A stretch of DNA of 64,000 bases from a virus (IMGVR_UViG_3300028833_000068:1-64000), one strand, 5' to 3'. Positions 1,107-26,240 are shown, counted from the stretch's first letter. Notes: a model not told the origin generated them from the sequence alone. A program made the numbers and translations.

Positions 1107-1191
1107 AATTTATTATATTTACATATAAATATCTTCGAAAACCAAAAACTACGCTAAATTCATAGACTTTTTTCAAAAAACTTACATTTCG

Positions 1192-1268
1192 CAGCCCCTA
1201 TCGGATTCGAACCGACCTGTTTGAACACTGTGACAGAGTGACGGACACACCTAGCATCCCCAGAGGCT
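1192..1268 (-). tRNA. tRNA-Asp(GTC)
   Basis: Acceptor AGCCTCT/AGGGGCT, G73, loop CT-GTC-AC, T arm GTCGG TTCGAAT CCGAT. Confidence 0.85.
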
Positions 1269-1283
1269 ATTATTTTTTTTTTG

Positions 1284-1366
1284 AGACGAGGGTGAGATTT
1301 GAACTCACGTGCTTTTCAGCCAAAGGTTTTGCAGACCTAGGTAATTGACCACTCTACCACCTCGTC
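1284..1366 (-). tRNA. tRNA-Cys(GCA) with long variable arm
   Basis: GACGAGG/CCTCGTC, U73, loop CT-GCA-AA, variable hairpin GCT-GAAA-AGC. Confidence 0.9.
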
Positions 1367-1417
1367 ATCTCGTTATTAAAAAATCAAGAGTTGAACCAAC
1401 TTTTTTGAAATTTCAAG

Positions 1418-1490
1418 TGCGACAAGGCGACTCGAACGCTCCTCCTTCAGTTTTTCAGACTGACTTGCAGACCCCTTACACTATTGCCGC
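1418..1490 (-). tRNA. tRNA-Phe(GAA)
   Basis: GCGGCAA/TTGTCGC, TCAGT CT-GAA-AA ACTGA, TTCGAGT T loop. Confidence 0.85.
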
Positions 1491-1507
1491 ATTTTTATTC
1501 CCACATT

Positions 1508-1810
1508 TTATAACTTATCCAAATCATTAACAGTAGCTAACCATTCTTCATTTACATCATCCCAAAATTTACTTCCTTGCTTTGTTTTTCCCCAATTAAA
1601 TGCATGGACAATCCATTCTTTTGGTCTAAGCTCAGCTAACAAATATTTCAATGATAGTATTCCAAATTCCTCTTTAAATTGGTTATTTTTAGATTCTACA
1701 TTATCAATAAATGTTTTGTAAACTTTATATTCGATAAGAAATCTTTGAAAATGCCATTTATATCTTTTTATATCCATATACCATTTTATATTTTGTTGCA
1801 AATATACCAA
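1508..1810 (-). CDS. hypothetical protein
   Basis: ORF track; the annotated start overlaps a promoter motif, so the real start is probably the second Met. Confidence 0.65.
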   Translation of the reverse strand: MVYLQQNIKWYMDIKRYKWHFQRFLIEYKVYKTFIDNVESKNNQFKEEFGILSLKYLLAELRPKEWIVHAFNWGKTKQGSKFWDDVNEEWLATVNDLDKL

Positions 1811-1857
1811 ATTTATTTTAAATCTCCAAATTTATTTAGTTAATTAATCTTAAGCAC

Positions 1858-1902
1858 ATAAAAAAAGCTGCTAAAGACTTTTTTGGAGTTCTTCAACAGC
1901 TT
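1858..1902 (-). terminator. intrinsic terminator, part of a putative attenuator
   Basis: AAGCTGTTGAAGA...TCTTTAGCAGCTT hairpin followed by a U-run. Confidence 0.75.
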
Positions 1903-1950
1903 GGGAAATATATAGTGAAGTAAGTGCCTTCATTTTTTCACATTTTTATA

Positions 1951-2082
1951 CTACGTTTCTATATAGCCCTTAAGCTGCCCTCCAACTTTTGAGTTAGAAT
2001 TAAATACAACGGTATCACTCCATTTACAATCAGTAAATGAACTAGATGTTGTCTTGGCAATATTTTTAATCGTTGTATTCAT
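1951..2082 (-). CDS. putative 43-aa leader peptide (MNTTIKNIAKTTSSSFTDCKWSDTVVFNSNSKVGGQLKGYIET)
   Basis: Hand-translated ATG..TAG ORF whose 3' end is complementary to the downstream terminator's 5' strand. Confidence 0.6.
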   Translation of the reverse strand: MNTTIKNIAKTTSSSFTDCKWSDTVVFNSNSKVGGQLKGYIET

Positions 2083-2195
2083 AATTTAATAGTATTTAAA
2101 ATGTTTGTTTTTTACTTATAATTATATTACTAATCTCAAAAAGTTTTATTTTTTCGATATTTTTTTAAATTTTTTTTATTTTTTCTTGTTTACAA

Positions 2196-2229
2196 TGCAA
2201 AGATATATAAAATTTTCGAGAATTCCAAA
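2196..2229 (-). promoter_or_regulatory. Bacteroidota sigma-A type promoter (TTTG...TAnnTTTG)
   Basis: Minus strand TTTGGAA-N-TATATCTTTGCA; the same motif recurs near 1797, 3565, 7434, 11532, 15154, 15979, 20447, 22021, 23854, 29906, 33383, 36885 and on + near 40457-40490. Confidence 0.8.
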
Positions 2230-2250
2230 TTTTTAAGCAACTTTTTTTCA

Positions 2251-2607
2251 TTAAGCACTTAAAATTACTTCCCAGTCCTCATCAACTTCATTAACTTCTT
2301 CTACTTCCTCTTCGCAATCTGAATCGGTAATTGTTGCTAGATTATTGATAACCTTCTTTGTTCCAACCGCAACAGCATACAATCCACCAACTCCTCTTAA
2401 CTTAATTCGTCTATCACAAGTATATCCTTCAACAACTCCACTTGCCCAACACTTCTCACCAATTTGATTGAGATAACAAAAAGTAATGCCATCACCATCA
2501 ATTGCTTCATATTCCTTGGTTACAGTATTATATAATCTCTTATCCTTAATAACCAAACATCTCTCAACTATTTGGATTACCTTGGAGTTGTCAATTTCAA
2601 TAAACAT
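2251..2607 (-). CDS. hypothetical protein, acidic C-terminus
   Basis: ORF track. Confidence 0.7.
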   Translation of the reverse strand: MFIEIDNSKVIQIVERCLVIKDKRLYNTVTKEYEAIDGDGITFCYLNQIGEKCWASGVVEGYTCDRRIKLRGVGGLYAVAVGTKKVINNLATITDSDCEEEVEEVNEVDEDWEVILSA

Positions 2608-2631
2608 AACAATAATAGTTTTAAAAGTTTG

Positions 2632-2705
2632 TACACCCAGAGGGACTCAAACCCCCAATCTGATGGTTCGTGGCCACCTATTCTATTCAGTTGAACTATG
2701 GGTGC
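2632..2705 (-). tRNA. tRNA-Arg(ACG)
   Basis: GCACCCA/TGGGTGT, GGTGG CC-ACG-AA CCATC; C33; A19/U56. Confidence 0.9.
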
Positions 2706-2711
2706 AAGAAA

Positions 2712-2850
2712 GGAAGCGTAGGTTTATTATGACTATTTTCCTCTACATGGAGAACTGTTACTATTCTTCGCAGTAAAACGCATGTGGTACTTAGCCCTTT
2801 GCCTAGTTTCAGAGTAACATAAATTATTAATCCAACTGCTGTACGCTTCC
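2712..2850 (-). ncRNA. ACAGCA-stem element 1 (structured, non-tRNA cargo)
   Basis: GGAAGCGT-ACAGCAG...ACGCTTCC terminal stem. Confidence 0.7.
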
Positions 2851-2895
2851 GCTAAGAGTTCTATTTGAATTATGAAAAACACACTCAAATTAAAA

Positions 2896-3045
2896 AGGAA
2901 CGACCAATTTTATGTCTTGGCTCGACATTCGCTCCTAAGAGCATAAGCAAGTGCCTCGCAAATATGATTTAACGCTTCTCTTGCTTTCATTTACTGAATC
3001 TAATACAAATGTTTTAAAATAAAGTAAATGTTGCTGTACGTTCCT
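2896..3045 (-). ncRNA. ACAGCA-stem element 2
   Basis: AGGAACG-T-ACAGCAA...CGTTCCT terminal stem; internal CATTTACT/AGTAAATG stem. Confidence 0.7.
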
Positions 3046-3175
3046 ACTGATGCAGCTAGGCGCAACTGGGCTTCCTAGATACACCTTGTGATACCGCTTT
3101 AAACCTCGTGAGCCATTGTTAATGCGCACACGCTCGACTTCCACGAGTATTTACGTCTTTGGTTTATTGCGGTTG

Positions 3176-3249
3176 TGATGAGGGAGGGACTCGAACCCTC
3201 AACCTACAGCTTAGAAGGCTGTTGCTCTGTCCAATTGAGCTACCCCACC
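3176..3249 (-). tRNA. tRNA-Arg(TCT)
   Basis: Canonical cloverleaf, ACAGC CT-TCT-AA GCTGT. Confidence 0.95.
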
Positions 3250-3250
3250 A

Positions 3251-3406
3251 TTATTTCAACGTTTTATCTTTCTTCTCGTCATAGTCATCCCATAGGAATG
3301 GTTCTTTTTCATCAACAATTGGTGCGTGTTTGATTTCATATAGGAATATAGAAATTCCTAATCCCATCATAATGCCAAGTACAATTGCAATAATTTTAAG
3401 AATCAT
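3251..3406 (-). CDS. small single-pass membrane protein (51 aa)
   Basis: Hand-translated MILKIIAIVLGIMMGLGISIFLYEIKHAP...; below the ORF-track cutoff. Confidence 0.6.
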   Translation of the reverse strand: MILKIIAIVLGIMMGLGISIFLYEIKHAPIVDEKEPFLWDDYDEKKDKTLK

Positions 3407-3409
3407 AAC

Positions 3410-3562
3410 TTATTGTTTTTTAAATTCCTTTTCAATTTCTCCATCAAATACCTTTCTATTGTATTCATGAGACTTTTTTTCTTTGGAATTAATCTTACCA
3501 ATCAGTACAATAATGACACCTAGTAAGAAACATATTATCATAAACAATATTAACCTTCCCAT
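3410..3562 (-). CDS. small single-pass membrane protein (50 aa)
   Basis: Hand-translated MGRLILFMIICFLLGVIIVLIGKINSK...; directly downstream of a promoter motif. Confidence 0.55.
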   Translation of the reverse strand: MGRLILFMIICFLLGVIIVLIGKINSKEKKSHEYNRKVFDGEIEKEFKKQ

Positions 3563-3630
3563 AATGCAAATATACCAAAAAATTTTTTAATAACCAAATT
3601 TATTAAGACTTTTTAAGAAAATAATTTGTG

Positions 3631-3718
3631 TGCCCTAGGTAGGACTCAAACCTACACGCTACTATTATTTCGCACTAGATTCTAATTCTAGGATGTCTAT
3701 CAATTCCACCACTAGGGC
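3631..3718 (-). tRNA. tRNA-Leu(TAG)
   Basis: GCCCTAG/CTAGGGC, A73, CTAGA AT-TAG-AA TCTAG, long variable region. Confidence 0.9.
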
Positions 3719-3724
3719 ATTTTC

Positions 3725-3875
3725 GGAAACATTTAATATTCTAATTGCCGTGTTTAGCCACTCCACCACCACATGTTTAATGATTAAGTTGTCATGTGGG
3801 TAGGATTCGAACCTACGAAACCGTTACGGTTAGCAATTCCCTTTTGAACATTTTTATCAATTGCTGTACGTTTCC
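3725..3875 (-). ncRNA. ACAGCA-stem element 3: circularly permuted type-II tRNA-like (YrlA-like)
   Basis: GGAAACGT-ACAGCAA...ATGTTTCC; order is V arm, T arm (GTAGG TTCGAAT CCTAC), CCACATG-linker-CATGTGG, D arm. Confidence 0.85.
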
Positions 3876-3878
3876 TTA

Positions 3879-3960
3879 TGGTAGTGAAGGGGGGACTTGA
3901 ACCCCCATACACCAATTACGGCTTTAACGACTGTATATAAGACAGGACCGATACATCACT
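3879..3960 (-). tRNA. non-canonical tRNA-Ile(TAT)-like, D arm displaced, CCA encoded
   Basis: AGTGATG/CTTCACT-A-CCA, CTGT CT-TAT-AT ACAG, GGGGG TTCAAGT CCCCC; no normal D hairpin. Confidence 0.75.
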
Positions 3961-4168
3961 AGTTTAAAATATTGTTATTCCAATATGGATAATTCTTCTT
4001 TTCAGATTCTGGTGTATCAATAAGTTCATACCTTGCTCCGCAATAAGGACAATGTGCGTTTGTAACCATTGCATCATCGTCTTCTGAAAGTTCTTCCCCA
4101 TTAATTTCGCTTAACATGAAATTTGATTCAAGAATCAAATCATGTTTACATCGCATACATTTTTCCAT
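3959..4168 (-). CDS. small zinc-ribbon protein
   Basis: CxxC...CPYCG. Confidence 0.75.
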   Translation of the reverse strand: MEKCMRCKHDLILESNFMLSEINGEELSEDDDAMVTNAHCPYCGARYELIDTPESEKKNYPYWNNNILN

Positions 4169-4189
4169 ATTGTTAAGTTTTAATTTTAA

Positions 4190-4211
4190 GGGGAACTACG
4201 AAGAGTTCCCC
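4190..4211 (-). terminator. hairpin / putative terminator
   Basis: GGGGAACT-N6-AGTTCCCC after the membrane-protein gene. Confidence 0.55.
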
Positions 4212-4220
4212 ATTTTATTT

Positions 4221-4550
4221 TTATTCGGTTTTCTTTGGTAGGAATATTGGCAAGTTATCGATGAAATTCTTAATGAAAGGAATATCATAGATACCATTAC
4301 TTGCAAGTCCCACTACTGCACAAAGGCAAATCAATGCTAGCCATACTGGTTCTCCAATACATGTAATCAAGCCAAGGAAATAACCTCCTACGGTTAGTGC
4401 AGAACCTGTAATCCATGCGACAAGCTGTGGCCAAAATCCTTCTGTAATGTTAAATTTTCCGTTAATTGCTCCTGCAATCGTAACAGTCAATGAAGCAAGA
4501 ATTGGTGCAAAATACCAAAATGCCTCAGTAAATAATGCTGTTGTAATCAT
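4221..4550 (-). CDS. small multi-pass membrane protein, holin-like
   Basis: About 3 hydrophobic segments, GLASNGIYD motif, basic C-terminus. Confidence 0.6.
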   Translation of the reverse strand: MITTALFTEAFWYFAPILASLTVTIAGAINGKFNITEGFWPQLVAWITGSALTVGGYFLGLITCIGEPVWLALICLCAVVGLASNGIYDIPFIKNFIDNLPIFLPKKTE

Positions 4551-4591
4551 AAATTAGGTTTTTAGTTTTAGTTATTTTAAAAAGTATTTTG

Positions 4592-4663
4592 AGACGATGA
4601 CCAGAATCGAACTGGCGTCCTTTGCATGGCAAGCAAACGCACTAGCCACTGTGCTACACCGTC
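4592..4663 (-). tRNA. tRNA-Gly(GCC)
   Basis: GACGGTG/CATCGTC, U73, TTTGC TT-GCC-AT GCAAA. Confidence 0.9.
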
Positions 4664-4724
4664 AATTAATATCTCTTCCTATTATCCTTTAATGTGTGTC
4701 GAAACACTAATTATTTTCTAAAAG

Positions 4725-4797
4725 AGCGTCATAACAGATTCGAACTGTCTCCTAAACCTTGGAGGGGTCTCATGCTACCATTGAACACCAATGACGC
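4725..4797 (-). tRNA. tRNA-Gly(TCC)
   Basis: GCGTCAT/ATGACGC, U73, AGACC CC-TCC-AA GGTTT; C33. Confidence 0.9.
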
Positions 4798-5006
4798 AAG
4801 TAACTAACTTCGTGATAAATGCCTTAAATAGCGTTTATCTGGTTTGGTATTAGTCTTGAGCTGTTTACCTATTCGCAGCAACCGTTTGTCTAGTCATCTA
4901 GAAGACAAAGGAGAATGTAGACGATTTTGATGACTGACAAACTTGCGGTTTTTTCGCATTAACACCGCCAAAGCTTAAGTCTTATTCTCCTAAATGTTGT
5001 TAATGT

Positions 5007-6023
5007 TTACTGTGCCATTGTAACCTTTGCAGCACGACCTTGTACCTTGTCTACGCCCTTACCTACTGCACTAGCAACTCTAACACCACGATTAACGCTA
5101 AGATATTCAGCAACGGTCTTTGCACGGTCTTCAGAAAGCTTCTGATTAAACTCAGCAGTACCATCCTCAGATGCAGTACCTACAACATCAACGATTGCGT
5201 CATTACCAATGCTATTAAGAATAGTCTTTGCCTCATTACTGAGTTCTGAACTAGCGGTTGCAAATGTAACAATCCATTCTGTGTTATTTACGAATACAGT
5301 AGCGGTATTAGGCTGCGTAATGTGTCTCTCAACAATAACCTCAGTTGGCTTCTTTGCAAGTTCCTCATTCAAACGATTAATCTCGTTCATCATTGCACCA
5401 ACATCATAAGTCTTGAAATGACGTGTACCATTAGAGGTCTTGAAGTGATACTTATAAGTTACCATCAAGCTAAGATTTGCATTGTTGTGGTTAAACTGTA
5501 AGGCACTGCCGTTCTTAAGTCCCCAATAGATTGCTGGAGTCAATACAACTGAATGCTGCTTAGTCTTACCAAAATTAACTGCAAAATCGAAACCAGTCTT
5601 TGCAACAAGGTCATTTCCGCTATGGTCAAAACCATGACGTGCTCCAATACCTAGTACAGCAGATGTCTCAAATGCACGAGGTGTACCCTTATAGCCCAAG
5701 AAGATGTTAGGAAGGTTAAAAGCACCATTCAAGCCAAGACTAATAGACCTAAAGGCAGTCTTTACATCACCAAAATGGTTGTCACCAAGGCTTGTCAAAA
5801 CCTCAAGCTGTGCATCTAACCAAGGAGTGATACCCTTTGTACCAACAAGACCGAAAGTTGTGTTTACTGGGAACACGCTATTCATGTCAAGAGGTGAAGT
5901 TACACCTACGGTTGCTCCAAGGCTAATGTTGTCGAGAACCTTGCTGTTCTCAGTTGCAATCTGTGCATTCGCACCCATCACTACGGCACTAAACAGTGCC
6001 AACATTAAAATCAATTTCTTCAT
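5007..6023 (-). CDS. OmpA-family outer membrane protein
   Basis: Signal peptide, alternating beta-strand region, C-terminal OmpA-like motif GTASEDG...NQKLSEDRAKTVAEYL. Confidence 0.85.
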   Translation of the reverse strand: MKKLILMLALFSAVVMGANAQIATENSKVLDNISLGATVGVTSPLDMNSVFPVNTTFGLVGTKGITPWLDAQLEVLTSLGDNHFGDVKTAFRSISLGLNGAFNLPNIFLGYKGTPRAFETSAVLGIGARHGFDHSGNDLVAKTGFDFAVNFGKTKQHSVVLTPAIYWGLKNGSALQFNHNNANLSLMVTYKYHFKTSNGTRHFKTYDVGAMMNEINRLNEELAKKPTEVIVERHITQPNTATVFVNNTEWIVTFATASSELSNEAKTILNSIGNDAIVDVVGTASEDGTAEFNQKLSEDRAKTVAEYLSVNRGVRVASAVGKGVDKVQGRAAKVTMAQ

Positions 6024-6063
6024 AACAATTTTTTTTTAATTTAATTTTGTTTTTAATTTGTTA

Positions 6064-6372
6064 TTAGAAGGGGAGGTCATCAAGCTCCTTTGCTATTCTG
6101 AGTCTCCACCTATATGTATAATATTTTACGTTAAATTTATAACTAATCTTAAATGACGGTATGTTAACATTAATACCCTTACGTTCAAATGTCTTGACTA
6201 TTAAATCAAAAGCATCTGAACAGTATGGATATGTTGTTTCCACATTAAGCTCTAGTGGTTCTTCATCATCCATCACATTCTTGTTTATACAATCTTGAAT
6301 GTTCCTTATGAAAAATAAACAATACCTAGGAAAATCAATATCCTTTTTTGTTATTTTCTTATATTCAGCCAT
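6064..6372 (-). CDS. hypothetical protein
   Basis: ORF track; DDLPF C-terminus. Confidence 0.7.
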   Translation of the reverse strand: MAEYKKITKKDIDFPRYCLFFIRNIQDCINKNVMDDEEPLELNVETTYPYCSDAFDLIVKTFERKGINVNIPSFKISYKFNVKYYTYRWRLRIAKELDDLPF

Positions 6373-6388
6373 AAATTCTATAAAAAAC

Positions 6389-6491
6389 GGATGCTCTTTT
6401 TGTTTGCTAAACCACTAAGCGACTTTGCCAAACGGCAAGGGTTGGAATCGAACCAACGTAGAAACAGAAGTTTCCATTGCTGTAAGCATCC
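6389..6491 (-). ncRNA. ACAGCA-stem element 4: YrlA-like T-acceptor-D module
   Basis: GGATGCTT-ACAGCAA...GAGCATCC; GTTGG TTCGATT CCAAC, CCTTGCC-GTTT-GGCAAAG, GCTTAGTGGTTTAGC. Confidence 0.85.
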
Positions 6492-6496
6492 TTGTG

Positions 6497-6644
6497 TGGA
6501 CTGTATTGGATTCGAACCAATGTTGCCGATTAGCCGCTTCACATTACATATGAAACATCATTATGTTAATCACCATAATGTGCAAAGGGGTCTCTCCTTT
6601 GTTCCTCCAAGTGCTTCGCTGCATTCCAACTTACTGAACAGTCC
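6497..6644 (-). ncRNA. 148-nt tRNA-like RNA (acceptor and T arm, large internal insert)
   Basis: GGACTGT/ACAGTCC-A, ATTGG TTCGAAT CCAAT; no canonical anticodon arm. Confidence 0.7.
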
Positions 6645-6751
6645 ATTTAATTTATTTTATAAAGAGTTATAGAAACTTATAAAAGCATCTATTTTCTCTT
6701 TCATCATTTCCTTCCCTTTTTCATTGTTTATTTGATTCCATGATAAATTGT

Positions 6752-7123
6752 TTAATACTGTTGTTTGCTTGGAATAACACCCCTTACACCACCACGAGGA
6801 TTATCACAGTCTCCATCGTATCTTGGGATAATGTGGATATGACAGTGTTTAACTGTTTGCCCAGCACTATCCCCACAGTTAGTACCGATGTTATAACCAG
6901 TAGGATGAAACTTATCATCCAGTATCTTTTTCACATCATTCAGTCTAAAACTCAATGATTCCCTCAGCCTATCTGGTAGGTCAAAGAAGGTTTCGTGATG
7001 CTCCTTCGGAATGAGTAGCGTATGTCCAGGGGTTACAGGATAACCATCGTAAACGGCAACCCACTCTGTAGTCTCAAACAGAATTCTACTCTTATCAATA
7101 TTACAAAAAATACAATTATCCAT
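6752..7123 (-). CDS. HIT family nucleotide hydrolase
   Basis: CIFC N-terminus, PGHTLLIPK, GQTVKHCHIHIIPR histidine triad. Confidence 0.95.
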   Translation of the reverse strand: MDNCIFCNIDKSRILFETTEWVAVYDGYPVTPGHTLLIPKEHHETFFDLPDRLRESLSFRLNDVKKILDDKFHPTGYNIGTNCGDSAGQTVKHCHIHIIPRYDGDCDNPRGGVRGVIPSKQQY

Positions 7124-7221
7124 ACTCTAATTTACCGTTTGGGTATTTGTTGAAAAACTCTGTTATAATGTCTCTTATCTCGTCACACATACCTTCTCTT
7201 CCTTCGTATGTGATTTTCTTG

Positions 7222-7297
7222 TGGCACAGACCCGACTCGAACGGGCACAATCCACTTCCCAAAAGTGGGCGGGTACCAATTACCGTTATACTGCGCC
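7222..7297 (-). tRNA. tRNA-Pro(TGG)
   Basis: GGCGCAG/CTGTGCC, CCACT TT-TGG-GA AGTGG, GCCCG TTCGAGT CGGGT. Confidence 0.85.
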
Positions 7298-7305
7298 AAT
7301 TATTC

Positions 7306-7424
7306 GGAAACATCTATCCACTTAGCTATCACGCCAATCTTGGTAGCGTGAGTTGGACTTGAACCAACGACCTTAAAATCCCGAATTTTATACTATATCA
7401 TTTTTTAACTTGCTGTGTGTTTCC
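7306..7424 (-). ncRNA. ACAGCA-stem element 5: circularly permuted tRNA-Pro(CGG)-like
   Basis: GGAAACAC-ACAGCAA...ATGTTTCC; TAAAA TT-CGG-GA TTTTA, AGGTC, T arm, TCACGCT-A-CCA, linker, GGCGTGA, D arm. Confidence 0.85.
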
Positions 7425-7478
7425 TTGTACTTTTGCAAAGATATATAAAATATTTTAAATTTCCAAATTTTTGACGTT

Positions 7479-8423
7479 TTATTTTTCGTTTATGTCTATT
7501 TTTGCAATAAGTGGATAATGGTCTGATGATGTTATATTAGTATCAAAAGAACATTCTTTCAATGACAATTGATATTTTGACTTATCATTATTAACATAGA
7601 ACAACTTATCACAATCTGAATGATTTGTTGGGATTGCTTCTTGAATATTTAATCCATTTATATTATTAATGGCATTAATCAAATTATCTTGAATGTTTGT
7701 TTTATCCCATTCATACTTATCGTAAGTATTTGTGTCACCAAATATGATAATTGGGTTATATGATTTGGCTTTATCTATATATTCCACCAATTGTTTTAAC
7801 TGTGATTCTCTTGCTTCCAAATCTCCAGATATATTTGGACATTTTTCTGCATCATAAAAATCAGCATCCATGTGTAACATATACACATCCAATGGAATTT
7901 CGTTATCTATAACGGTAGTATAATATCTAAATCCTTTATGAGTTAATGCATCATTAGCATGCGTAAAGTACCCATAGCACTTTTTCCATCGTTTAATGTC
8001 TTCTGTTTTTTGAATGACATCAATTCTATTTTTCTTAGCAATGATATTAATACCATCACATTTAAATCTAGGCAATGGAAAATAAGTTAGCCATTCTGTA
8101 TTTGAAAATAACTTTGAAAGGTCAAATCCTCCTGTATATTTGCCACAAGAATAATTATCTTTCAATGATGACATTAATTCATCATGATAATTAAAGTCTT
8201 CTTGAACTCCTATAATATCTGCCTCAGAGGATGATAGATATTTGCTTATGTTTTCAATATCTTCTTTCTTATTTCCATTGTCATTAATTGAAATAATTGT
8301 TGTTCCTTTAAATAACTTATATATCCAAGCAATTGGTTTCAATATCCAAGGAAGGTCATTTAAATCCAATTCACTTGGCAAACCATCAATATTATAGGTT
8401 ATTAGCTTAATTGTTTTATCCAT
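7479..8423 (-). CDS. endonuclease/exonuclease/phosphatase (EEP) family protein
   Basis: ITYNIDG, DIIGVQED, GDTN, SDHYP motifs. Confidence 0.9.
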   Translation of the reverse strand: MDKTIKLITYNIDGLPSELDLNDLPWILKPIAWIYKLFKGTTIISINDNGNKKEDIENISKYLSSSEADIIGVQEDFNYHDELMSSLKDNYSCGKYTGGFDLSKLFSNTEWLTYFPLPRFKCDGINIIAKKNRIDVIQKTEDIKRWKKCYGYFTHANDALTHKGFRYYTTVIDNEIPLDVYMLHMDADFYDAEKCPNISGDLEARESQLKQLVEYIDKAKSYNPIIIFGDTNTYDKYEWDKTNIQDNLINAINNINGLNIQEAIPTNHSDCDKLFYVNNDKSKYQLSLKECSFDTNITSSDHYPLIAKIDINEK

Positions 8424-8463
8424 TTAATCTATTGTTCCTTCTTCTATTAGTTTTACCTTGTAT

Positions 8464-8501
8464 TTGACATACTCTCACGCCTAAAGGCATTGGGCTTTCT
8501 T
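8464..8501. mobile_element. possible orphan IS200/IS605-family end hairpin
   Basis: CTCTCACGCCTAAAGGCATTGGGCTTTCT resembles IS605/IS1341-type subterminal palindromes; no transposase nearby. Confidence 0.4.
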
Positions 8502-8551
8502 GGGAAATTTTTCGTAACTTTTTCATAACAAATTACAGTATTAATCATTTG

Positions 8552-8635
8552 GGTGATATGTTGGATTCGAACCAACGTGAGCTTTCGCTACCAGGACCAC
8601 AATCTGGCGTCATCGGCCTCTAGACGAATATCACC
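8552..8635 (-). tRNA. tRNA-His(GTG) with G-1 and long variable arm
   Basis: G-GTGATAT/ATATCAC-C73, CCAGA TT-GTG-GT CCTGG, AGC-GAAA-GCT variable hairpin. Confidence 0.9.
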
Positions 8636-8832
8636 ATATTAAAAACGAACAGTAGTATATGCCATTACGAGCAGATACCATTACTAGTTACTATCAATTG
8701 CCTCAGCATATCGTCATCATTTTTACAGTACTACTATTATATGACTATTGTTTGCCTACTTCCTATCAAGTCTGTTCTTCTGTGTAGACTTCCCTACATT
8801 GCACGAAGCGGTGACTACAATCCCCCAATGCG

Positions 8833-8917
8833 TGGACTGTATGGGACTCGAACCCATCGTTCTGTATGGTCTTCGTGCGCCTAACCGACCAGCGTTTCCC
8901 TACCACATTGACAGCCC
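8833..8917 (-). ncRNA. tRNA-like RNA with G3:U70 (Ala-type) acceptor, no canonical D or anticodon arm
   Basis: GGGCTGT/ACAGTCC-A, ATGGG TTCGAGT CCCAT, TGGTC/GACCA stem with a 15-nt loop. Confidence 0.7.
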
Positions 8918-8929
8918 ATGTTAAAAAAC

Positions 8930-9045
8930 GGAATCATTAAAACTAAGGTGGTGCAGGATTCGAACCTACGTTCTCTTGGTAAAATCCAAGGCTTTAGTCC
9001 ACTAAGCTAACCGTCTGAAGTTTATATCAATTGCTGTTAGATTCC
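8930..9045 (-). ncRNA. ACAGCA-stem element 6: whole tRNA body (UUU-like loop) inside the scaffold
   Basis: GGAATCTA-ACAGCAA...ATGATTCC; GCTT AGTGGACTA AAGC, CTTGG ATTTTA CCAAG, GTAGG TTCGAAT CCTGC. Confidence 0.8.
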
Positions 9046-9051
9046 TTTTTG

Positions 9052-9134
9052 TCAGGTGGGTAGGATTCAAACCTACGAACTTCTGCTATATCAACACGGC
9101 TATATTTGCAGAACAATGATGCCGTTTCCACCTG
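9052..9134 (-). ncRNA. non-canonical tRNA-like RNA
   Basis: CAGGTGG/CCACCTG-A, GTAGG TTTGAAT CCTAC; TTCTGC/GCAGAA stem; ACGGC/GCCGT possible pseudoknot. Confidence 0.7.
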
Positions 9135-9139
9135 TTTTG

Positions 9140-9212
9140 TCTAGATGAAAGGACTCGAACCTTCGACCACAGCATCCCAAATGCCGCATTCTACCTACTG
9201 AACTACACCTAG
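9140..9212 (-). tRNA. tRNA-Pro(TGG)
   Basis: CTAGGTG/CATCTAG, CGGCA TT-TGG-GA TGCTG. Confidence 0.92.
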
Positions 9213-9325
9213 ATTTGTGCCACCATAGATAATACTCTAGAATTCTTGCATTATATCCTCTATAGTCTTATGCTGCTCTTAGAGAGGTTGCCTAAAGACT
9301 CATATTACTATGAATGAGCACTTTG

Positions 9326-9419
9326 TGGGAAGGGAGGGATTCGAACCCCCCTACTGCGAGACCAATACGCCCATTTGTTAATGCAGGACTGATTTACAGT
9401 CAGTTGACGTTACCTTCCC
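9326..9419 (-). tRNA. non-canonical tRNA-Tyr(GTA), D arm displaced
   Basis: GGGAAGG/CCTTCCC-A, ACTGA CT-GTA-AA TCAGT, GGGGG TTCGAAT CCCTC; only 8 nt between acceptor and anticodon arm. Confidence 0.8.
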
Positions 9420-9421
9420 TT

Positions 9422-9485
9422 TAAGCATAGGTTTCCTAACCACAATCCTTTCGAATTGACCACAGTGATGAGCTGTGTATGCTTA
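9422..9485 (-). ncRNA. small RNA carrying a CAT anticodon arm
   Basis: TAAGCATA/TATGCTTA closing stem, CACAG CT-CAT-CA CTGTG, GAAA tetraloop hairpin. Confidence 0.55.
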
Positions 9486-9486
9486 T

Positions 9487-9681
9487 TTAATCAAATGCAA
9501 TATAATGAAAATACAATGCCATTTTTTTAATTAATATATCCTCATCTATATCTTCTTTCTGAGGATACTTTCCTAGATATTGTTTTACCACTCTTTCATT
9601 TGCTTGTATGGTTGAGAATCCGAATTTATTCTCTTCCACCATTTTATTATATTTTTCTGTTAATCCTTTTACGTTAATCAT
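9487..9681 (-). CDS. hypothetical protein
   Basis: ORF track. Confidence 0.6.
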   Translation of the reverse strand: MINVKGLTEKYNKMVEENKFGFSTIQANERVVKQYLGKYPQKEDIDEDILIKKMALYFHYIAFD

Positions 9682-9684
9682 TTC

Positions 9685-9727
9685 ACTTAAACTTCCCTAA
9701 TCTTATTCCCTCTACGAGGTAATCATA
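9685..9727. repeat. 43-bp direct repeat, copy 1 (copy 2 at 10107-10149)
   Basis: acttaaactt(c/t)cctaatcttattccctctacgaggtaatcata, one mismatch. Confidence 0.9.
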
Positions 9728-9731
9728 TACC

Positions 9732-10088
9732 TCACTTATATTTAAATTCAATTATAAACACATTTTTATCTCTTCTATCGAATCTTGTTATGTTAAGGTT
9801 CTCAATACGTCCTTTCTCTTCATCGAGTCTGAATCCATCCTCAAATGAGCGATACACTTCTAGCTCTTTTGGATTCTGCGTGACAATACAAATCACCTTT
9901 TGCAATGAGTTATCTTCCGTATGACAGAACATTGCCCTCATACCCCTAAAGTTATTGTTTATAGCAATACCTCCGCTTGTAACGAGTCCTAATGCAAACT
10001 CTTCCCAAATAGGAATATCACACTCTAAATAAATACCCATACCGCAAGGGTCTTTGGCATTCAGATGTTCTTTCGTAATTACTTCCAT
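9732..10088 (-). CDS. hypothetical protein flanked by direct repeats
   Basis: ORF track. Confidence 0.7.
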   Translation of the reverse strand: MEVITKEHLNAKDPCGMGIYLECDIPIWEEFALGLVTSGGIAINNNFRGMRAMFCHTEDNSLQKVICIVTQNPKELEVYRSFEDGFRLDEEKGRIENLNITRFDRRDKNVFIIEFKYK

Positions 10089-10104
10089 ATAGCTTTATTT
10101 TAAA

Positions 10105-10542
10105 TTACTTAAACTTTCCTAATCTTATTCCCTCTACGAGGTAATCATACGTTATTTTCCAATCTGTTTCAGCATCAAAGCCAAACTTATCATCTATTCC
10201 CACATTGAAATAAGTTTTTTCTGTAAAGTCTGAGAGGTCAGTATTTCCAGTTTCTGAATTGATATTGACCATATCAAACTTTATGCCATTATTCTTGAAA
10301 AACTCAAGATATTCCTTGATGGCATTCTTATGAGTTGATGACCACAATATGAGTGATATTTGTTGTGCGTGTGACATGATGTCAAGTGTTTCCTTGGCAT
10401 ATGGAAACCATTCATGAGTTTCCTCATTATGGTAGCATGCCTTAAGGATTGTATCGTGAATATCCACGAGCACATATATCTTTTCCCAATTGCGTTCTTT
10501 CATTCTTTTGAAAGCTGCATCAAAACTCTTTTCTATATTCAT
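10105..10542 (-). CDS. HAD-superfamily phosphatase-like protein
   Basis: VDIHDTI motif I, LILWSS, GIDDK. Confidence 0.75.
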   Translation of the reverse strand: MNIEKSFDAAFKRMKERNWEKIYVLVDIHDTILKACYHNEETHEWFPYAKETLDIMSHAQQISLILWSSTHKNAIKEYLEFFKNNGIKFDMVNINSETGNTDLSDFTEKTYFNVGIDDKFGFDAETDWKITYDYLVEGIRLGKFK

Positions 10543-10745
10543 AACTATAATTGTATGTTATTAAAATAAAGGAGAGTAGTATCTAATTAAGTAAATCTCT
10601 AGAGTCGTTAAAGACATAATACAATCTATCATTTACCTTCGACCAATCGGCATCAAGATATACATCTTAATAAGACTTGCTCTCCAACAAGGCTTACCTA
10701 GTTTGAGTGTTGCTTGGCAACTCTCAGGGACTAATAAGCTCCATG

Positions 10746-10817
10746 TTGAGGCTGAATGAATCGAACATTCATAATGAGGACCAGAATCTCATGTAATAAC
10801 CATTATACGAAGCCTCA
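10746..10817 (-). tRNA. tRNA-Gln(CTG)
   Basis: TGAGGCT/AGCCTCA, TGAGA TT-CTG-GT CCTCA. Confidence 0.9.
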
Positions 10818-10824
10818 AGTTTAA

Positions 10825-10886
10825 GGGAACATTTTTAACTTATCCAAATTTGCAGTTCGATGTTAAATACATTGCTGTATGTTCCC
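10825..10886 (-). ncRNA. ACAGCA-stem element 7: minimal scaffold presenting a Cys(GCA) anticodon arm
   Basis: GGGAACAT-ACAGCAA...ATGTTCCC; TTAAC/GTTAA; TCGAA CT-GCA-AA TTTGG. Confidence 0.8.
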
Positions 10887-10992
10887 ACTATTTGATAGCA
10901 GGGTTGCTAGATTTCACTCAAATGACTTTACACATTAAACGTATCTGCATGCACTGTCCGTTCTTGAGACTGTCCTAGTACTTTCTGCTTTG

Positions 10993-11083
10993 TATTGGGT
11001 AGGGGATTCGAACCCCTGAAGAGTCTCGTAAAACTCTTACAAGATTGAAAGTCTTGCTACTTAAACCACTCGTACAACCCAAC
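10993..11083 (-). tRNA. tRNA with Glu(TTC) anticodon on a type-II (long variable arm) body
   Basis: GTTGGGT/ACCCAAT-A, CAAGA CT-TTC-AA TCTTG, AAGAGTTT-TACG-AGACTCTT variable stem. Confidence 0.85.
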
Positions 11084-11236
11084 ATTTGTAAAAAGGTCAG
11101 AGCACCATAGATAGTCTCGTTATTACGATTCGGATTTACACTATCCTCTGATAGAGGCACTATTCGTTTCCAAGTGAGTCATGTTGTACACCATGCGTCT
11201 CGAAACCTAACTATCATCCTCGAATGATGACCTTTG

Positions 11237-11310
11237 TAGCGTTAGCGAGACTCAAACTCGCAATCTCCACCTTGAGGGGGTGGCGGCTTAATCAGTTCGC
11301 CTATAACGCC
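11237..11310 (-). tRNA. tRNA-Glu(CTC)
   Basis: GGCGTTA/TAACGCT, CCACC CC-CTC-AA GGTGG; C33; A19/U56. Confidence 0.9.
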
Positions 11311-22135: not shown

Positions 22136-23815
22136 TTACAACTTAATGTAAGACAGAATTTCTTGGTTAAGTGCCTTGGCTACAAGTTCCTCTGCGGTAA
22201 GATTACGTACCTTTCCAGTTACCTCATCAATAACCTTCGACTCTTCTCCACATAGGGTTGTTATAATGCTTCCGTCAAATCCCGAAAGGAACGTACATCC
22301 ACTCTCGAAGGCAGTACCCTCAAAGTGGGTTACACCGTGTCTTGCAACACAATCCCACCAAATGAATTTCATATTGTCCACAAACTCACTTGGGAATACA
22401 GTCTTCAACGCCCTCTTTGAGTACTCGAAGTTTGTTTCAGTTTGGCGATAGTTGCCACCATACCAACTACGATTAGACGGGTTAAACTCCATATCGGATA
22501 CAACCAGTATGGTCTTTGGATACTGCTCCAATGGAATTTCTGGATGTGCCTTTCTAATCTTGATGATTTCATCAACTGCTGATTGGAAATTAGTTCCACC
22601 GCAGCCTACGCTAGGAAGGTTCATAATTCTATCACAGAATGACTCGCCAACCATATCGTGAGGTGTTGACACATTGTCGAACATAATAACCTTATTATGG
22701 AAAGGACCAGTATTAAGGTCAGCGAAGAACAATGCAAGCGATGATGCAATATCAGAACAATAGATGTCCTTCAATCCTCTAACAGCTTGGTTCATTGAAC
22801 CGCTAGTATCAAGACAGCACCATACATTCTCTGTAATCTTACCACCATCACGAGCCTTATCAACAAGACCCTTGAACTGTGCATCAAGAGTGTGCTTCAA
22901 CTCTATGGGAATATTTGCATTGCCACCACGATAGTAACCATACCTACTACCACGAGCCTCACGTAGGCGCTTTGCAAGTTCAAAGACATAGCCAGTGAAC
23001 TTAGCAACTGGCTGCTGCAATATCCACTCTGTATAGTTCTCTCTCAAATCGTGGTTTGAAAGGAACTTGCTTGACACAAGAAGGTTAAGAGCACGTCCTG
23101 GAATGTGATTCCAATTCAAGTCCTTATAGTTCCTTGAGCAGATAAGCTTCTGGAAATCGTGAGCCTTACCGCTAGCCTTCATCTTATTGTACTCCTTGTA
23201 GGAGATACCCATTTGACTAGCGAATGCCTTTGCGAGGTCATTGGTAATCTTTGTCCAATCAGTATTGCACTTGCTCTGAGACTTAATACGAGGCATGTAC
23301 TTCTTAATCAAGTCAACATGGGTGTCGCAAAGTAGACCTTGTGCGATTACCTCAAAGAGAGCCTTTTGGTTAATACAATTGGTATTCTCCTTGATATCGT
23401 AGAACATAATTGTCCACAAGTCCTTCCAAGAGCCAACAAGTGGCAATGCCCAAATGTTGTTATAGAACGCCTCTGGATGCTCCAATGCAACCCAAAGCAA
23501 TCTCTTGAATGACTCGTCACGAGCACCTTGTCCATTCTGAACCTTATCAGTCTCGTTGTCAGCATTCACCTTGACCTTACGAGTAACCATACGAAGGTAG
23601 AATGGGAAACGAAGAGCTGCCTCTGCATTCTCATTCCAAATATTTGCTTGTTCAGCAAACACCTCTCCAATGGCACGACCACGAAAGTTTCCAGCCTTAC
23701 CGAATTGGTCTACGATTGCAGACCCACTAGAAATTAGTGTTGTTGCCCCGTTTTCTGTCAGTGTTGTTGACTTAAAGTTTGCTGCGTTGATAAATGCGTT
23801 TGCCTTTGTGTTCAT
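22136..23815 (-). CDS. DUF2828-type (TROVE/Ro60-like) protein with C-terminal vWA domain
   Basis: TENGA N-terminal motif, GQGARD, GSWKDL, KYMPR, MIDAS DTSGSM, GGTNFQ, VVSDMEF. Confidence 0.8.
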   Translation of the reverse strand: MNTKANAFINAANFKSTTLTENGATTLISSGSAIVDQFGKAGNFRGRAIGEVFAEQANIWNENAEAALRFPFYLRMVTRKVKVNADNETDKVQNGQGARDESFKRLLWVALEHPEAFYNNIWALPLVGSWKDLWTIMFYDIKENTNCINQKALFEVIAQGLLCDTHVDLIKKYMPRIKSQSKCNTDWTKITNDLAKAFASQMGISYKEYNKMKASGKAHDFQKLICSRNYKDLNWNHIPGRALNLLVSSKFLSNHDLRENYTEWILQQPVAKFTGYVFELAKRLREARGSRYGYYRGGNANIPIELKHTLDAQFKGLVDKARDGGKITENVWCCLDTSGSMNQAVRGLKDIYCSDIASSLALFFADLNTGPFHNKVIMFDNVSTPHDMVGESFCDRIMNLPSVGCGGTNFQSAVDEIIKIRKAHPEIPLEQYPKTILVVSDMEFNPSNRSWYGGNYRQTETNFEYSKRALKTVFPSEFVDNMKFIWWDCVARHGVTHFEGTAFESGCTFLSGFDGSIITTLCGEESKVIDEVTGKVRNLTAEELVAKALNQEILSYIKL

Positions 23816-23945
23816 CTTCTCTTGTTTTTTTTGTATTAAACATTAATTATTTTTGCAAATATATAAAAAAAAATTGGAATAACCAAATTTATTAACACTT
23901 TTTTTCAATAAAAATGATATTTATAGTAGTAATTAACAAATTATT

Positions 23946-24383
23946 ATGAATAAGATTGATATTATTATTAGTGAAGAGATAAAAAGGGCGTTAAATGAGG
24001 ATTTCTTTGGAGAGAAGAAACATGATGATGGCGTTGGTGATTTAATCAAAAATTATCTTCATAGGCATAAGAAAAAGAAGAAGAAAGGTCCAACCATGAA
24101 ACTTCGTAAGAAGAAGGGTGGTGGTAAAGAATATTATGATTATGATGATTATCAGATAAAGAATAAGAAGATTTCCAAGGGTGATGCATCAACAATCAGT
24201 AGCAAGGTTGATATGGAGAAGACCAATATTGCAGCCATTGCTAGAGAGTTATTTCCAGACCATACGGAGGAAGGTGCTCAATCTCAGTTAAGAAAGATTT
24301 TGAATGGTGAAAGACCAATGTCGAAGAAGATTGCAGCAAAGATTGACAAGATGATTTCAGCTGGACAAATCGCTGTAGAATAG
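23946..24383 (+). CDS. hypothetical protein with possible C-terminal HTH
   Basis: AQSQLRKILNGERPMSKKIA resembles an XRE-type HTH; preceded by GATATTTATA. Confidence 0.65.
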   Translation: MNKIDIIISEEIKRALNEDFFGEKKHDDGVGDLIKNYLHRHKKKKKKGPTMKLRKKKGGGKEYYDYDDYQIKNKKISKGDASTISSKVDMEKTNIAAIARELFPDHTEEGAQSQLRKILNGERPMSKKIAAKIDKMISAGQIAVE

Positions 24384-24421: not shown

Positions 24422-25324
24422 TCAAATTAGTTTACCAATTCTAGATATATATTCTTTTTTCATTTCGTCCAATGCTTCTCCCTCAAGTTGTCTAACTCTT
24501 TCTGCTGTTAGTCCAAGTTTTACCCCAATTTCCTCTCGTTCGTATTCTCTTTTGAGACCATTGTCATCATAGAGACCAAAACGCATCTTAATGATTTCTT
24601 TCTTCCTAGGTGAAAGTTTATACAATAATGAAGATACCAACTGCTTATTGAATTCATCGTTTTCCTTATTGATATATTCATTATGTGAAGCACTCACACG
24701 GTTATAATCAGCCATATCGCTTCCTTGATAATTTTCGTCATCATTTGCTTCGCCCAAGTCAATACTTGCATAATGAGTAGCAATCAAATCAGTTTTATCA
24801 TTGATGTCCTTCTTATACTTTGTGTTGACAATCTCAAGGAGTTCTTCTGGGGTTGGAGTTCTTTCAAACTCTTGCAAAAAGTCATTTGTTGCCTTTGAAA
24901 TAACATGGAATGTCTTTGAAAGGTTTGTCTTTCGTACCAATTGATTGTCTCCATTGTTATAGTTATTGATTGCACGTAAAATGTACCACATTGCATAACT
25001 AGCAAACTTAGTACCAACTGTTATGTCAAAACTATCAATTGCTTCATTTAAGCCAAAATTTGCCTCATTCACATAATCCATCAGTGTATCAGTTGTTGCC
25101 CATTTCTTGGCTGCTGCTACTACCATGCGCTGATTACATATCATGATATATTCCTTTGCAAATTCTCTCTCTTCCTTCGTTCCGTGATGAAGCTGATTGA
25201 ACCATGCGACTTCTTCTTCCCTTGTGAATGTAGGAAAATCCTTAATATCATTATAGAAACGAGTGGTGTTTTCTGAGCGGTCTACAAGACCAGTCTCTGC
25301 TTTAAGATTAATTACAAGTCCCAT
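24422..25324 (-). CDS. sigma-70 family RNA polymerase sigma factor
   Basis: NQRMVVAAAKK, GLNEAIDSFD..GTKFASYAMWYI, region 4 LGLTAERVRQLE. Confidence 0.93.
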   Translation of the reverse strand: MGLVINLKAETGLVDRSENTTRFYNDIKDFPTFTREEEVAWFNQLHHGTKEEREFAKEYIMICNQRMVVAAAKKWATTDTLMDYVNEANFGLNEAIDSFDITVGTKFASYAMWYILRAINNYNNGDNQLVRKTNLSKTFHVISKATNDFLQEFERTPTPEELLEIVNTKYKKDINDKTDLIATHYASIDLGEANDDENYQGSDMADYNRVSASHNEYINKENDEFNKQLVSSLLYKLSPRKKEIIKMRFGLYDDNGLKREYEREEIGVKLGLTAERVRQLEGEALDEMKKEYISRIGKLI

Positions 25325-25882: not shown

Positions 25883-26240
25883 TCTTGCTTTCTAAATCTT
25901 TTATTTTCTTTTCTAACTTTTCAATTTGTTTTTCTCGCATAACAATGCTGTCCTTTTCCATACTAAGGACTAACTTCGCATAAGACAATTCCGTTTTTAA
26001 TTGTTCAAGAGGAGGCTCTTGATTCCTCATCTTTTCAGCCTCTTCTTCAGTCTTCATCGCATTTTCCAAGAATCTAATGGCAGACTTACCCTTTAATGTA
26101 GGAATAGGCTTGCCATTATCTATTGCTAATGCTGATGGTTCTTCATCATTATCAGTTGTAAATATACTGAAATCTTCTGATTCAGCCAAATTATTTTTCT
26201 TAAATTTCCTTAAACGTTTACTCATACCTCTTCTTCCCAA
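25860..26240 (-). CDS. hypothetical protein
   Basis: ORF track. Confidence 0.65.
   Translation of the reverse strand: MGRRGMSKRLRKFKKNNLAESEDFSIFTTDNDEEPSALAIDNGKPIPTLKGKSAIRFLENAMKTEEEAEKMRNQEPPLEQLKTELSYAKLVLSMEKDSIVMREKQIEKLEKKIKDLESKNGKTEER

Follow-up and report, generated by a model that had tools for sequence, protein, structure and literature searches.

Handle-bearing RNAs with tRNA-like cargo in a megaphage tRNA array, candidate Y-type partners of a Ro60-fold DUF2828 protein

Within the first 64 kilobases (kb) of a 171-kb IMG/VR virus record with a completeness estimate of 53% (IMGVR_UViG_3300028833_000068:1-64000, hereafter the window), whose close relatives are complete phages of 295-413 kb, we found seven small elements interspersed in a tRNA array, which share a common handle and differ in the cargo that it encloses. 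The handle is a helix of 6-8 base pairs (bp) uniting the 5′ and 3′ ends, followed directly by the unpaired box ACAGCA[A/G]. The elements certainly belong to a structured RNA family, and the genomic linkage of these handle RNAs to a DUF2828 protein with a predicted Ro60 fold is strongly supported. The whole of the evidence is best explained if the handle RNAs are Y-type partners of this protein, which we consider probable, and it points to a second particle of the Ro/Y-RNA type that is largely undescribed.

The coordinates and end sequences of the seven elements, as given in a preliminary description made from the sequence alone, were confirmed, and the terminal stem is closed in every minimum-free-energy fold. 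The elements are the following:

Element 1, 2712-2850, minus strand: 139 nucleotides (nt); handle GGAAGCGU / ACGCUUCC with the box variant ACAGCAG; cargo not tRNA-like.
Element 2, 2896-3045, minus strand: 150 nt; handle AGGAACG / CGUUCCU with ACAGCAA; cargo of three conserved hairpins.
Element 3, 3725-3875, minus strand: handle with T arm, long variable arm, closed acceptor hairpin, D arm and an anticodon-stem-like helix running into the handle.
Element 4, 6389-6491, minus strand: handle with a T-acceptor-D module (T arm, closed acceptor hairpin, D arm).
Element 5, 7306-7424, minus strand: complete circularly permuted tRNA body with internal CCA; handle inserted in the D loop.
Element 6, 8930-9045, minus strand: tRNA-like body with its parts in normal order and AUUUUA as a 6-nt 'anticodon' loop, enclosed by a handle that has 6 bp in this phage.
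Element 7, 10825-10886, minus strand: minimal 62-nt form; handle with a lone anticodon-arm mimic, a 5-bp hairpin with the loop CUGCAAA (Cys GCA-like).

Pairing of the ends, previously proposed for all seven elements, holds throughout; the stem is, however, effectively 7 bp long because position 8 is often mismatched, and element 6 has only 6 bp in this phage. With a fixed search rule (stem of at least 7 bp, spacer of 0-2 nt, ACAGCAA, partner strand within 160 nt), six matches were obtained in 8.2 kb of one strand, compared with 2.2 per 343 kb in shuffled genomes; the density of handle matches in the window is not due to chance. The GGNNNNNNACAGCAR pattern revealed 10-17 one-strand matches in each of five related genomes versus 0-1 for a reversed control pattern. 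The five complete relatives hold about 45 further copies. From them and the window, 43 elements were curated, the genomes of this megaphage clade carrying 7-12 copies each; the box reads ACAGCAA in 41 of these, the remaining two having ACAGCAG.

That the stem sequences differ while their pairing is kept was borne out by two-sided changes. Among the 29 distinct stems of the phage clade, G1, G2 and C6 are fixed, positions 3, 4, 5 and 7 vary on both strands, and position 8 is free. On average, 6.97 of the 7 positions are paired, compared with 5.75 after swapping the 3′ strands among elements, and none of 5000 swaps attained the observed value. A broad alignment of 25 small elements from about 20 lineages displayed two-sided changes at all seven stem pairs and a covariation score of 0.678 versus 0.26 when shuffled (0 of 500 attained it), with slid controls scoring lower than the true stem register. 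The preliminary description had named missing covariation in homologues as grounds for giving up the family; in both sets, covariation exceeded the controls. A covariance model, R1, was built from the 25-element alignment.

Around the handle, the sequence is A-rich before the 3′ strand, and G or U follows the latter, then a U run, T being present at downstream positions 2-7 in 25-32 of the 43 elements. The flanking bases are conserved as two classes, A...G and U...U. An extension of the stem into the A-rich upstream and U-rich downstream flanks was rejected because the correlation (A with G, or U with U) stops at the first flanking position, and there is therefore no longer helix. Outside the megaphage clade, variants of the box include UCAGCAA and ACAGCAC. 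Further R1 matches of 13-21 bits at window positions 30177-30225, 26164-26212, 27193-27254 and 55867-55921, and at G000 92987-93038, look like background. A further element class, absent from the window, was seen at L013 3089-3240 and in orthologues of this element; it has the handle GGAAACAG with a 6-bp stem and the partner ACGUUUCC, and its cargo is a T-acceptor-D module with a YrlA match of 31.9 bits.

The cargo of the window elements corresponds to what had been described before, ranging from folds without tRNA likeness to whole tRNA bodies. Element 1 has an orthologue at L016 3546-3687 with 78% identity and a partial one in L021. Element 2 shows a fold z-score of -3.89 and orthologues in all five complete relatives (74-85% identity), and in its consensus fold the handle is kept and compensatory changes occur at five cargo pairs. 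Sequence reading and fold both reveal a YrlA-like module order for element 3, with an orthologue at L016 5520-5668. Element 4, scoring 25 bits with R1 over its full length (6385-6494), is the sole window element with a weak match to the Rfam YrlA family (RF02553, 31.7 bits against a gathering score of 69), the whole model being covered. When element 5 is un-permuted by cutting the acceptor loop and rejoining the ends, ARAGORN calls a tRNA-Pro(CGG), and its syntenic orthologues treated likewise become Ile(GAU), Met(CAU) and Ile(AAU); a Bacteroidota-type TAnnTTTG box was read by eye just upstream. For element 6, ARAGORN reports 'tRNA-???' at 8945-9016 and the Rfam tRNA model 37.7 bits, and its orthologues at L016 10589-10706 and L020 15341-15454 have 8-bp stems. 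Element 7 reached 38.8 bits with R1, in whose training set it is included, and a fold z-score of -2.47.

Across the family, the small elements (53-88 nt) mostly enclose hairpins in the form of an anticodon arm. In 13 of 18 distinct small cargos, a 5-bp hairpin carries a 7-nt loop of the anticodon-loop type Y-U-NNN-R-N, compared with 0.8 expected, though two of the 13 are T loops. The anticodons mimicked include Lys UUU, Pro UGG, Cys GCA, Tyr GUA, Ser GCU, His GUG and Asp GUC, and the same syntenic position in different phages holds different anticodons. Altogether, the handle was found around lone anticodon arms, T arms alone, T-acceptor-D modules, permuted whole tRNAs and conserved non-tRNA folds.

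The candidate protein partner is encoded in the window itself:

Candidate partner, 22136-23815, minus strand: DUF2828 + DUF7788/vWA protein of 559 amino acids; predicted Ro60 ring fold; DxSxS motif of a MIDAS (metal ion-dependent adhesion site).

Its Pfam matches are PF11443 (33.5 bits) and PF25043 (54.9 bits). An AlphaFold2 (AF2) model based on a 92-sequence homologue alignment reached a predicted local distance difference test score (pLDDT) of 92.2 and a predicted template modelling score (pTM) of 0.91. The top 12 Foldseek matches of this model were all full-length Ro60/TROVE structures (1yvr, E 8e-9), followed by vWA-only matches with E > 3e-3. With VIA-align, the top 10 were likewise all Ro60/TROVE, and Xenopus Ro60 (1yvr) was superimposed with Z 20.6 and a root-mean-square deviation of 3.9 Å over 432 residues, the best vWA-only match having Z 11.3. 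At the sequence level, the likeness is faint: a profile search against PDB sequences also gave Ro60 as the best match, with an E-value of only 2e-4 and over the vWA part, and Pfam TROVE (PF05731) matched neither this protein nor any other in the window record or the five complete relatives. The MIDAS residues D336, S338 and S340 are invariant in the 92 homologues. As modelled, the protein thus has the full Ro60 architecture, namely a HEAT-repeat ring closed by a vWA domain with MIDAS.

Homologues are widespread. A tblastn search with the protein found 453 GenBank phages, including mycobacteriophages in which the gene is named 'Ro-like RNA binding protein' and Felix O1, where its name is 'RNA-binding protein', and about 2,400 cluster representatives of DUF2828 are present in a library of 1.8 billion proteins. 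One homologue, P0148 from the transcriptome of Rhizamoeba saxonica (EukProt), has 843 amino acids and 42% identity to the window protein, its DUF2828 and DUF7788 being fused to a 2H phosphoesterase / 2′-5′ RNA ligase domain (PF13563); transcriptomes of Stereomyxa and further amoebozoans hold related entries, and contamination is possible in all these cases.

In other phages, handle RNAs were found close to genes of this protein family:

Felix O1 (NC_005282.1): four elements (23872-23938, 24039-24096, 24493-24560 and 24580-24704), one with T-acceptor-D cargo, among the tRNAs that follow closely on the DUF2828-type gene (ORF42, 'RNA-binding protein').
Mycobacteriophage Silverleaf: one element directly past a YrlA-like RNA (39.8 bits) that follows the Ro-like gene.
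Cyanophage Lbo-JY46: five tandem elements immediately after the DUF2828-type gene.
IMG/VR contig L024: six tandem elements about 900 nt past the DUF2828-type gene.
Enterococcus iF6: three elements just upstream of the DUF2828-type gene.
Bacillus Chewbecca: three elements, tRNA array and gap upstream of the DUF2828-type gene.
Cronobacter S13: at least one element downstream of the DUF2828-type gene.

Whole-genome searches with R1 revealed more copies in XaC1, D479, S13 and Felix O1. As a control, five phages were picked without knowledge of their DUF2828 status: T4, T5, SPO1 and K showed neither an R1 match nor DUF7788, and KVP40 showed both on the same strand, 8 kb apart.

The same arrangement is found in bacteria. 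Two chromosomes (Chitinophagales and Saprospiraceae) carry two elements each directly after a DUF2828 gene, and a scan of species-representative genomes yielded 37 bacterial DUF2828 loci. Within these, the strict rule found 28 elements on the strand of the gene versus two on the opposite strand, and R1 (E <= 1) gave 44 matches, 43 of them on the gene's strand, mostly 10-600 nt past the stop codon and in 2-5 tandem copies. Searching phage and bacterial genomes with a covariance model, as had been suggested beforehand, thus recovered the RNAs in 22 of the 37 bacterial loci and in several phages. Among 81 Saprospiraceae genomes, five encode DUF7788, and the sole three R1 matches (E <= 0.05) lie in two of these five, directly downstream of the gene and on its strand (Fisher exact p = 0.003, leaving the positional coincidence uncounted); misses in this set mean little because the sensitivity of R1 in whole genomes is low. 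The earlier proposal of a modular, Y-RNA-like family with a handle of its own therefore gains support from the Ro60-fold protein of this phage and from the occurrence of the same RNAs beside genes of that protein family in numerous unrelated phages and bacteria.

Some of these loci revealed further features. In L036 and L040 (Saprospiraceae, 8-Mb chromosome), a WYL regulator, RtcB, a 1.4-kb non-coding gap and the DUF2828 gene are followed by two or three handle RNAs, an order that echoes the rsr-yrlBA-rtcBA RNA-repair operon of Salmonella. In two other Saprospiraceae loci (L046 276-751 and L051 3095-3574), five or six tRNA genes stand immediately upstream of the DUF2828 gene, and the tRNA context is therefore not confined to phages. 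In Cronobacter phage S13 (L033 9866-10108), two over-long annotated 'tRNAs', a tRNA-Ser of 121 nt and a tRNA-OTHER of 113 nt, directly precede the handle element at 10124-10258 and may be mis-annotated members of the handle RNA family.

In the mechanism that we propose, the handle would be the binding site of the phage Ro60-fold protein (DUF2828/DUF7788, 22136-23815), and the elements would be the counterparts of Y RNAs in a second, paralogous ribonucleoprotein (RNP) of the Ro type. The variable middle part could serve as an effector module; in the megaphage clade, these modules would be tRNA parts shown as look-alikes to tRNA-directed enzymes, either to decoy or tether the host's anticodon nucleases or to recruit repair and decay enzymes, and the outcome would be that translation is protected during infection. 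The parts of this proposal are not equally firm. From the genomic linkage and the predicted fold, it is likely that the handle RNAs physically bind the DUF2828 protein; a role in counter-defence or tRNA quality control has about even chances, and decoy action in particular, though reasonable as a hypothesis, is rather doubtful. The RtcB neighbourhood, the fusion with a 2H phosphoesterase, the genes for an RNA ligase and a CCA-adding enzyme near the DUF2828 homologues of XaC1 and S13, and the fast-changing anticodon cargo point to tRNA-centred RNA repair or conflict. Moreover, a PhageMaP preprint described gp130 of phage Bas63, which is Ro60-like by structure, is encoded directly upstream of Felixounavirus tRNA genes and counters the Ppl defence (PMC11482910). 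Judging from its Felix O1 homologue, gp130 appears to belong to the same DUF2828-type family, and its activity supports a counter-defence role for the family.

Several observations weigh against such a partnership. The megaphage of the window carries RNAs and protein gene on one strand, yet 11-19 kb apart rather than adjacent, and 15 of the 37 bacterial DUF2828 loci have no R1 match, nor was one found in a whole-genome search of Aeromonas phage phiAS5; absences in whole genomes are, however, weak evidence because only 63-150 candidates were scored per genome. Gp130 alone, from a plasmid or in T7, which is without such RNAs, suffices against Ppl (PMC11482910), and phage RNAs are therefore not needed for the anti-Ppl activity. 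Finally, the sole proven direct binder of a Dictyostelium Class I RNA, a class compared with our elements below, is the RRM protein Rnp1A, which is not Ro-like (PMC7919456).

Other explanations of the elements were considered. In algal permuted tRNAs, a leader-trailer helix brings the two halves together, and the elements could accordingly be seen as unusual permuted or split tRNA genes, with stem and box guiding the processing or ligation that joins the halves of decoding tRNAs. Indeed, element 5 and its orthologues resemble permuted tRNA genes of the Cyanidioschyzon merolae type in having the 3′ half before the 5′ half and hold every tRNA part including an internal CCA, and after un-permuting they are recognised as tRNAs; element 6 comprises an almost entire tRNA body; and in M. 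smegmatis, YrlA undergoes RNase P cleavage and CCA addition (PMC4201824). However, the break in the D loop is filled by the handle, which is also found on anticodon arms or T arms by themselves and on folds unlike tRNA, and which in bacteria encloses 20-50 nt of unrelated sequence beside DUF2828 genes; elements 3 and 4 are without any anticodon loop and that of element 6 has 6 nt; and the terminal helix of 7-8 bp with its one-sided 7-nt box displays no bulge-helix-bulge. This makes decoding tRNA genes an improbable explanation.

Protein-binding handles typically combine an invariant single-stranded box with stems that covary freely, and it is this combination, with a box of 7 nt, that speaks against regarding stem and box as mere punctuation of the tRNA-array transcript, i.e., as a site recognised by an RNase of host or phage, or as a termination signal, with no dedicated protein partner. 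The position of the elements between tRNAs, the T run that usually follows the 3′ strand and the two classes of conserved flanking bases would suit punctuation; yet the tRNA arrays of T4, T5, SPO1 and K are without elements, and in bacteria the elements are found where tRNAs are lacking, next to DUF2828 genes and on the gene's strand (43 of 44 with R1), and we give this explanation little credit. Terminal inverted repeats, many copies and variable inserts would also be shown by DNA-level mobile elements, namely miniature inverted-repeat elements carrying tRNA fragments. Here, however, the repeat arms differ among copies and yet remain complementary, all copies lie on one strand with the box confined to one arm, orthologous copies are syntenic across genomes, and no empty sites or target-site duplications were seen in the related genomes, so that mobile elements are hardly credible.

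The genomic surroundings of the elements can be summarised in one feature:

tRNA array with the seven elements interspersed, 1191-11310, minus strand: 14 ARAGORN tRNAs on the same strand, with Rfam tRNA matches.

Small open reading frames for a HIT protein, an EEP-family nuclease/phosphatase and an OmpA-like protein are scattered in the array. A megablast search of the 8.7-kb region against GenBank phages gave no match. At gathering thresholds, Rfam recognised only tRNAs in the window, and a scan at E <= 10 revealed no self-cleaving ribozyme and no family other than the sub-threshold ones mentioned here. Four extra, odd tRNA-like genes lie on the minus strand at 6497-6640, 8835-8920, 9326-9419 and 3882-3960; ARAGORN makes no call for them, and they possess acceptor and T arms together with long internal insertions, or score only weakly (29-34 bits) with the Rfam tRNA model. 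The tRNA arrays of relatives contain sub-threshold matches to GOLLD RNA (85.7 and 73.6 bits against a threshold of 150, at L017 692-1113 and L013 5993-6426) and phage-encoded transfer-messenger RNAs (tmRNAs; 78.8 and 64.3 bits, at L017 3189-3516 and L013 4249-4606), and neither reached its Rfam gathering score anywhere in the window. Between 13822 and 29601, the window encodes TelA, NAD synthase, a DUF723/treble-clef protein, a TyrRS adjoining the DUF2828 gene, a sigma-70 family factor and a full DnaJ.

If the handle RNAs are Y-type partners of the DUF2828 protein, a large uncharacterised family, which includes proteins of Felix O1-type phages of laboratory E. coli and Salmonella, would gain a testable RNA partner and be placed beside Ro60 and Y RNA. 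The authors of the gp130 study, in which no RNA partner was identified and the protein alone gave the anti-Ppl effect, only guessed that some of the 'tRNAs' may be Y RNAs (PMC11482910), and the elements described here would supply candidates. Phages would furthermore be seen to build a modular library of tRNA-part mimics on one handle, which bears on the arms race around tRNA-cleaving defence systems.

Of the known systems, YrlA with Ro60 is the obvious one for comparison. YrlA RNAs are recognised by a GNCGAAN0-1G motif near the 5′ end, presumed to contact Ro60, and by a T-acceptor-D tRNA-like domain (PMC4201824), and the Ro60-Yrl of Thermus phage phiLo is an example of this type in a phage (PMC12135203). 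Our elements resemble them in their two modules, an end-to-end stem with an adjoining conserved motif and a tRNA-like T-acceptor-D module, as well as in the linkage to a ring-shaped Ro60-fold vWA protein, the presence in phages and the RtcB neighbourhood in some bacteria. The T-acceptor-D order is present in elements 3 and 4, occurs in permuted form in element 5 and is not found in elements 1, 2 and 7. In contrast, the conserved motif is ACAGCA[A/G], mostly ACAGCAA, rather than GNCGAAN0-1G or CGAA, and the stem bases preceding it covary freely. With the Rfam YrlA model, scores of 22-41 bits against the threshold of 69 were obtained: the best relative had 41.4 bits, and no window element other than element 4 matched. 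No TROVE gene lies on the same strand within about 4 kb, as is usual for YrlA, and the Ro60-fold gene at its greater distance is DUF2828/DUF7788, with about 13% identity to Ro60. Because of the sub-threshold score, the missing GNCGAAN0-1G motif and the missing TROVE neighbour, the elements are not members of YrlA; their cargo is also far more varied, and many copies per genome are dispersed in the tRNA array.

The preliminary description was therefore right that the handle is not that of YrlA. The handle has a precedent, since the ACAGCAA core is known from the Class I RNAs of Dictyostelium (RF01414). A direct match to a characterised Rfam family of unrelated function would, according to the same description, have argued against a separate one; for RF02553 and RF01414, no element attained the gathering score. 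Class I RNAs, which start with AAG and end with CUGU, have 42-65 nt, a 6-bp covarying terminal stem and an 11-nt unpaired motif beside the 5′ strand, and were reported to be unique to dictyostelids, with the Dictyostelium upstream sequence element (DUSE) as promoter (PMC7919456). The consensus of the 11-nt motif is CCUUACAGCAA, with U3, C6, C9, A10 and A11 nearly invariant (PMC7919456), and that of RF01414 is the stem followed by CUUACAGCAA. The core of the window box, ACAGCAA, is identical to the core of this motif and covers C6, C9, A10 and A11, and the first four motif positions correspond to the covarying stem in our elements. Common to both are thus a short covarying end stem, which folds and covariation reveal to be kept in structure but not in sequence, and a conserved box without pairing that stands immediately 3′ of the stem's 5′ strand; in both, the rest of the RNA varies and paralogues are numerous. 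Relatives in bacteria, reading GAAAG-stem-N-ACAGCAA...stem-CUGUG, share in addition the AAG start, the CUGU end and a size of 45-80 nt. The window elements, on the other hand, mostly have 100-150 nt and tRNA-like cargo; only element 7 (62 nt) falls within 42-65 nt, and the ends read AAGG...CCGU or AGUGGG...CCCUU. At E <= 10, neither the window nor the megaphage relatives nor the bacterial loci gave a match to RF01414, and the members in cyanophage Lbo-JY46 scored 39.3, 30.7 and 26.2 bits, below the gathering score of 41.5.

As membership by RF01414 score fails, homology to the Class I RNAs remains an inference, though common descent is plausible from the shared stem and box. Our search of the literature found no paper linking DUF2828, Ro60 and Class I RNAs or the ACAGCAA motif, and the lists of DUF2828 homologues contained amoebozoan transcriptome entries (Rhizamoeba, Stereomyxa) and no Dictyostelium names. 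The proteins pulled down with DdR-21, a Class I RNA, were GuaB, NdkC, Rnp1A and the uncharacterised DDB_G0281243. The likeness would nevertheless give a lead on the biochemistry surrounding these RNAs, the first for about 20 years, and it calls their reported restriction to dictyostelids into question. Tentatively, and with somewhat less than even chances, we envisage an ancient second RNP of the Ro/Y type common to phages, bacteria and eukaryotes, of which the Class I RNAs would be the eukaryotic members with a DUF2828 Ro60 paralogue, perhaps DDB_G0281243, as their partner, and which phages would have converted, for counter-defence, into a display of tRNA parts that can be programmed.

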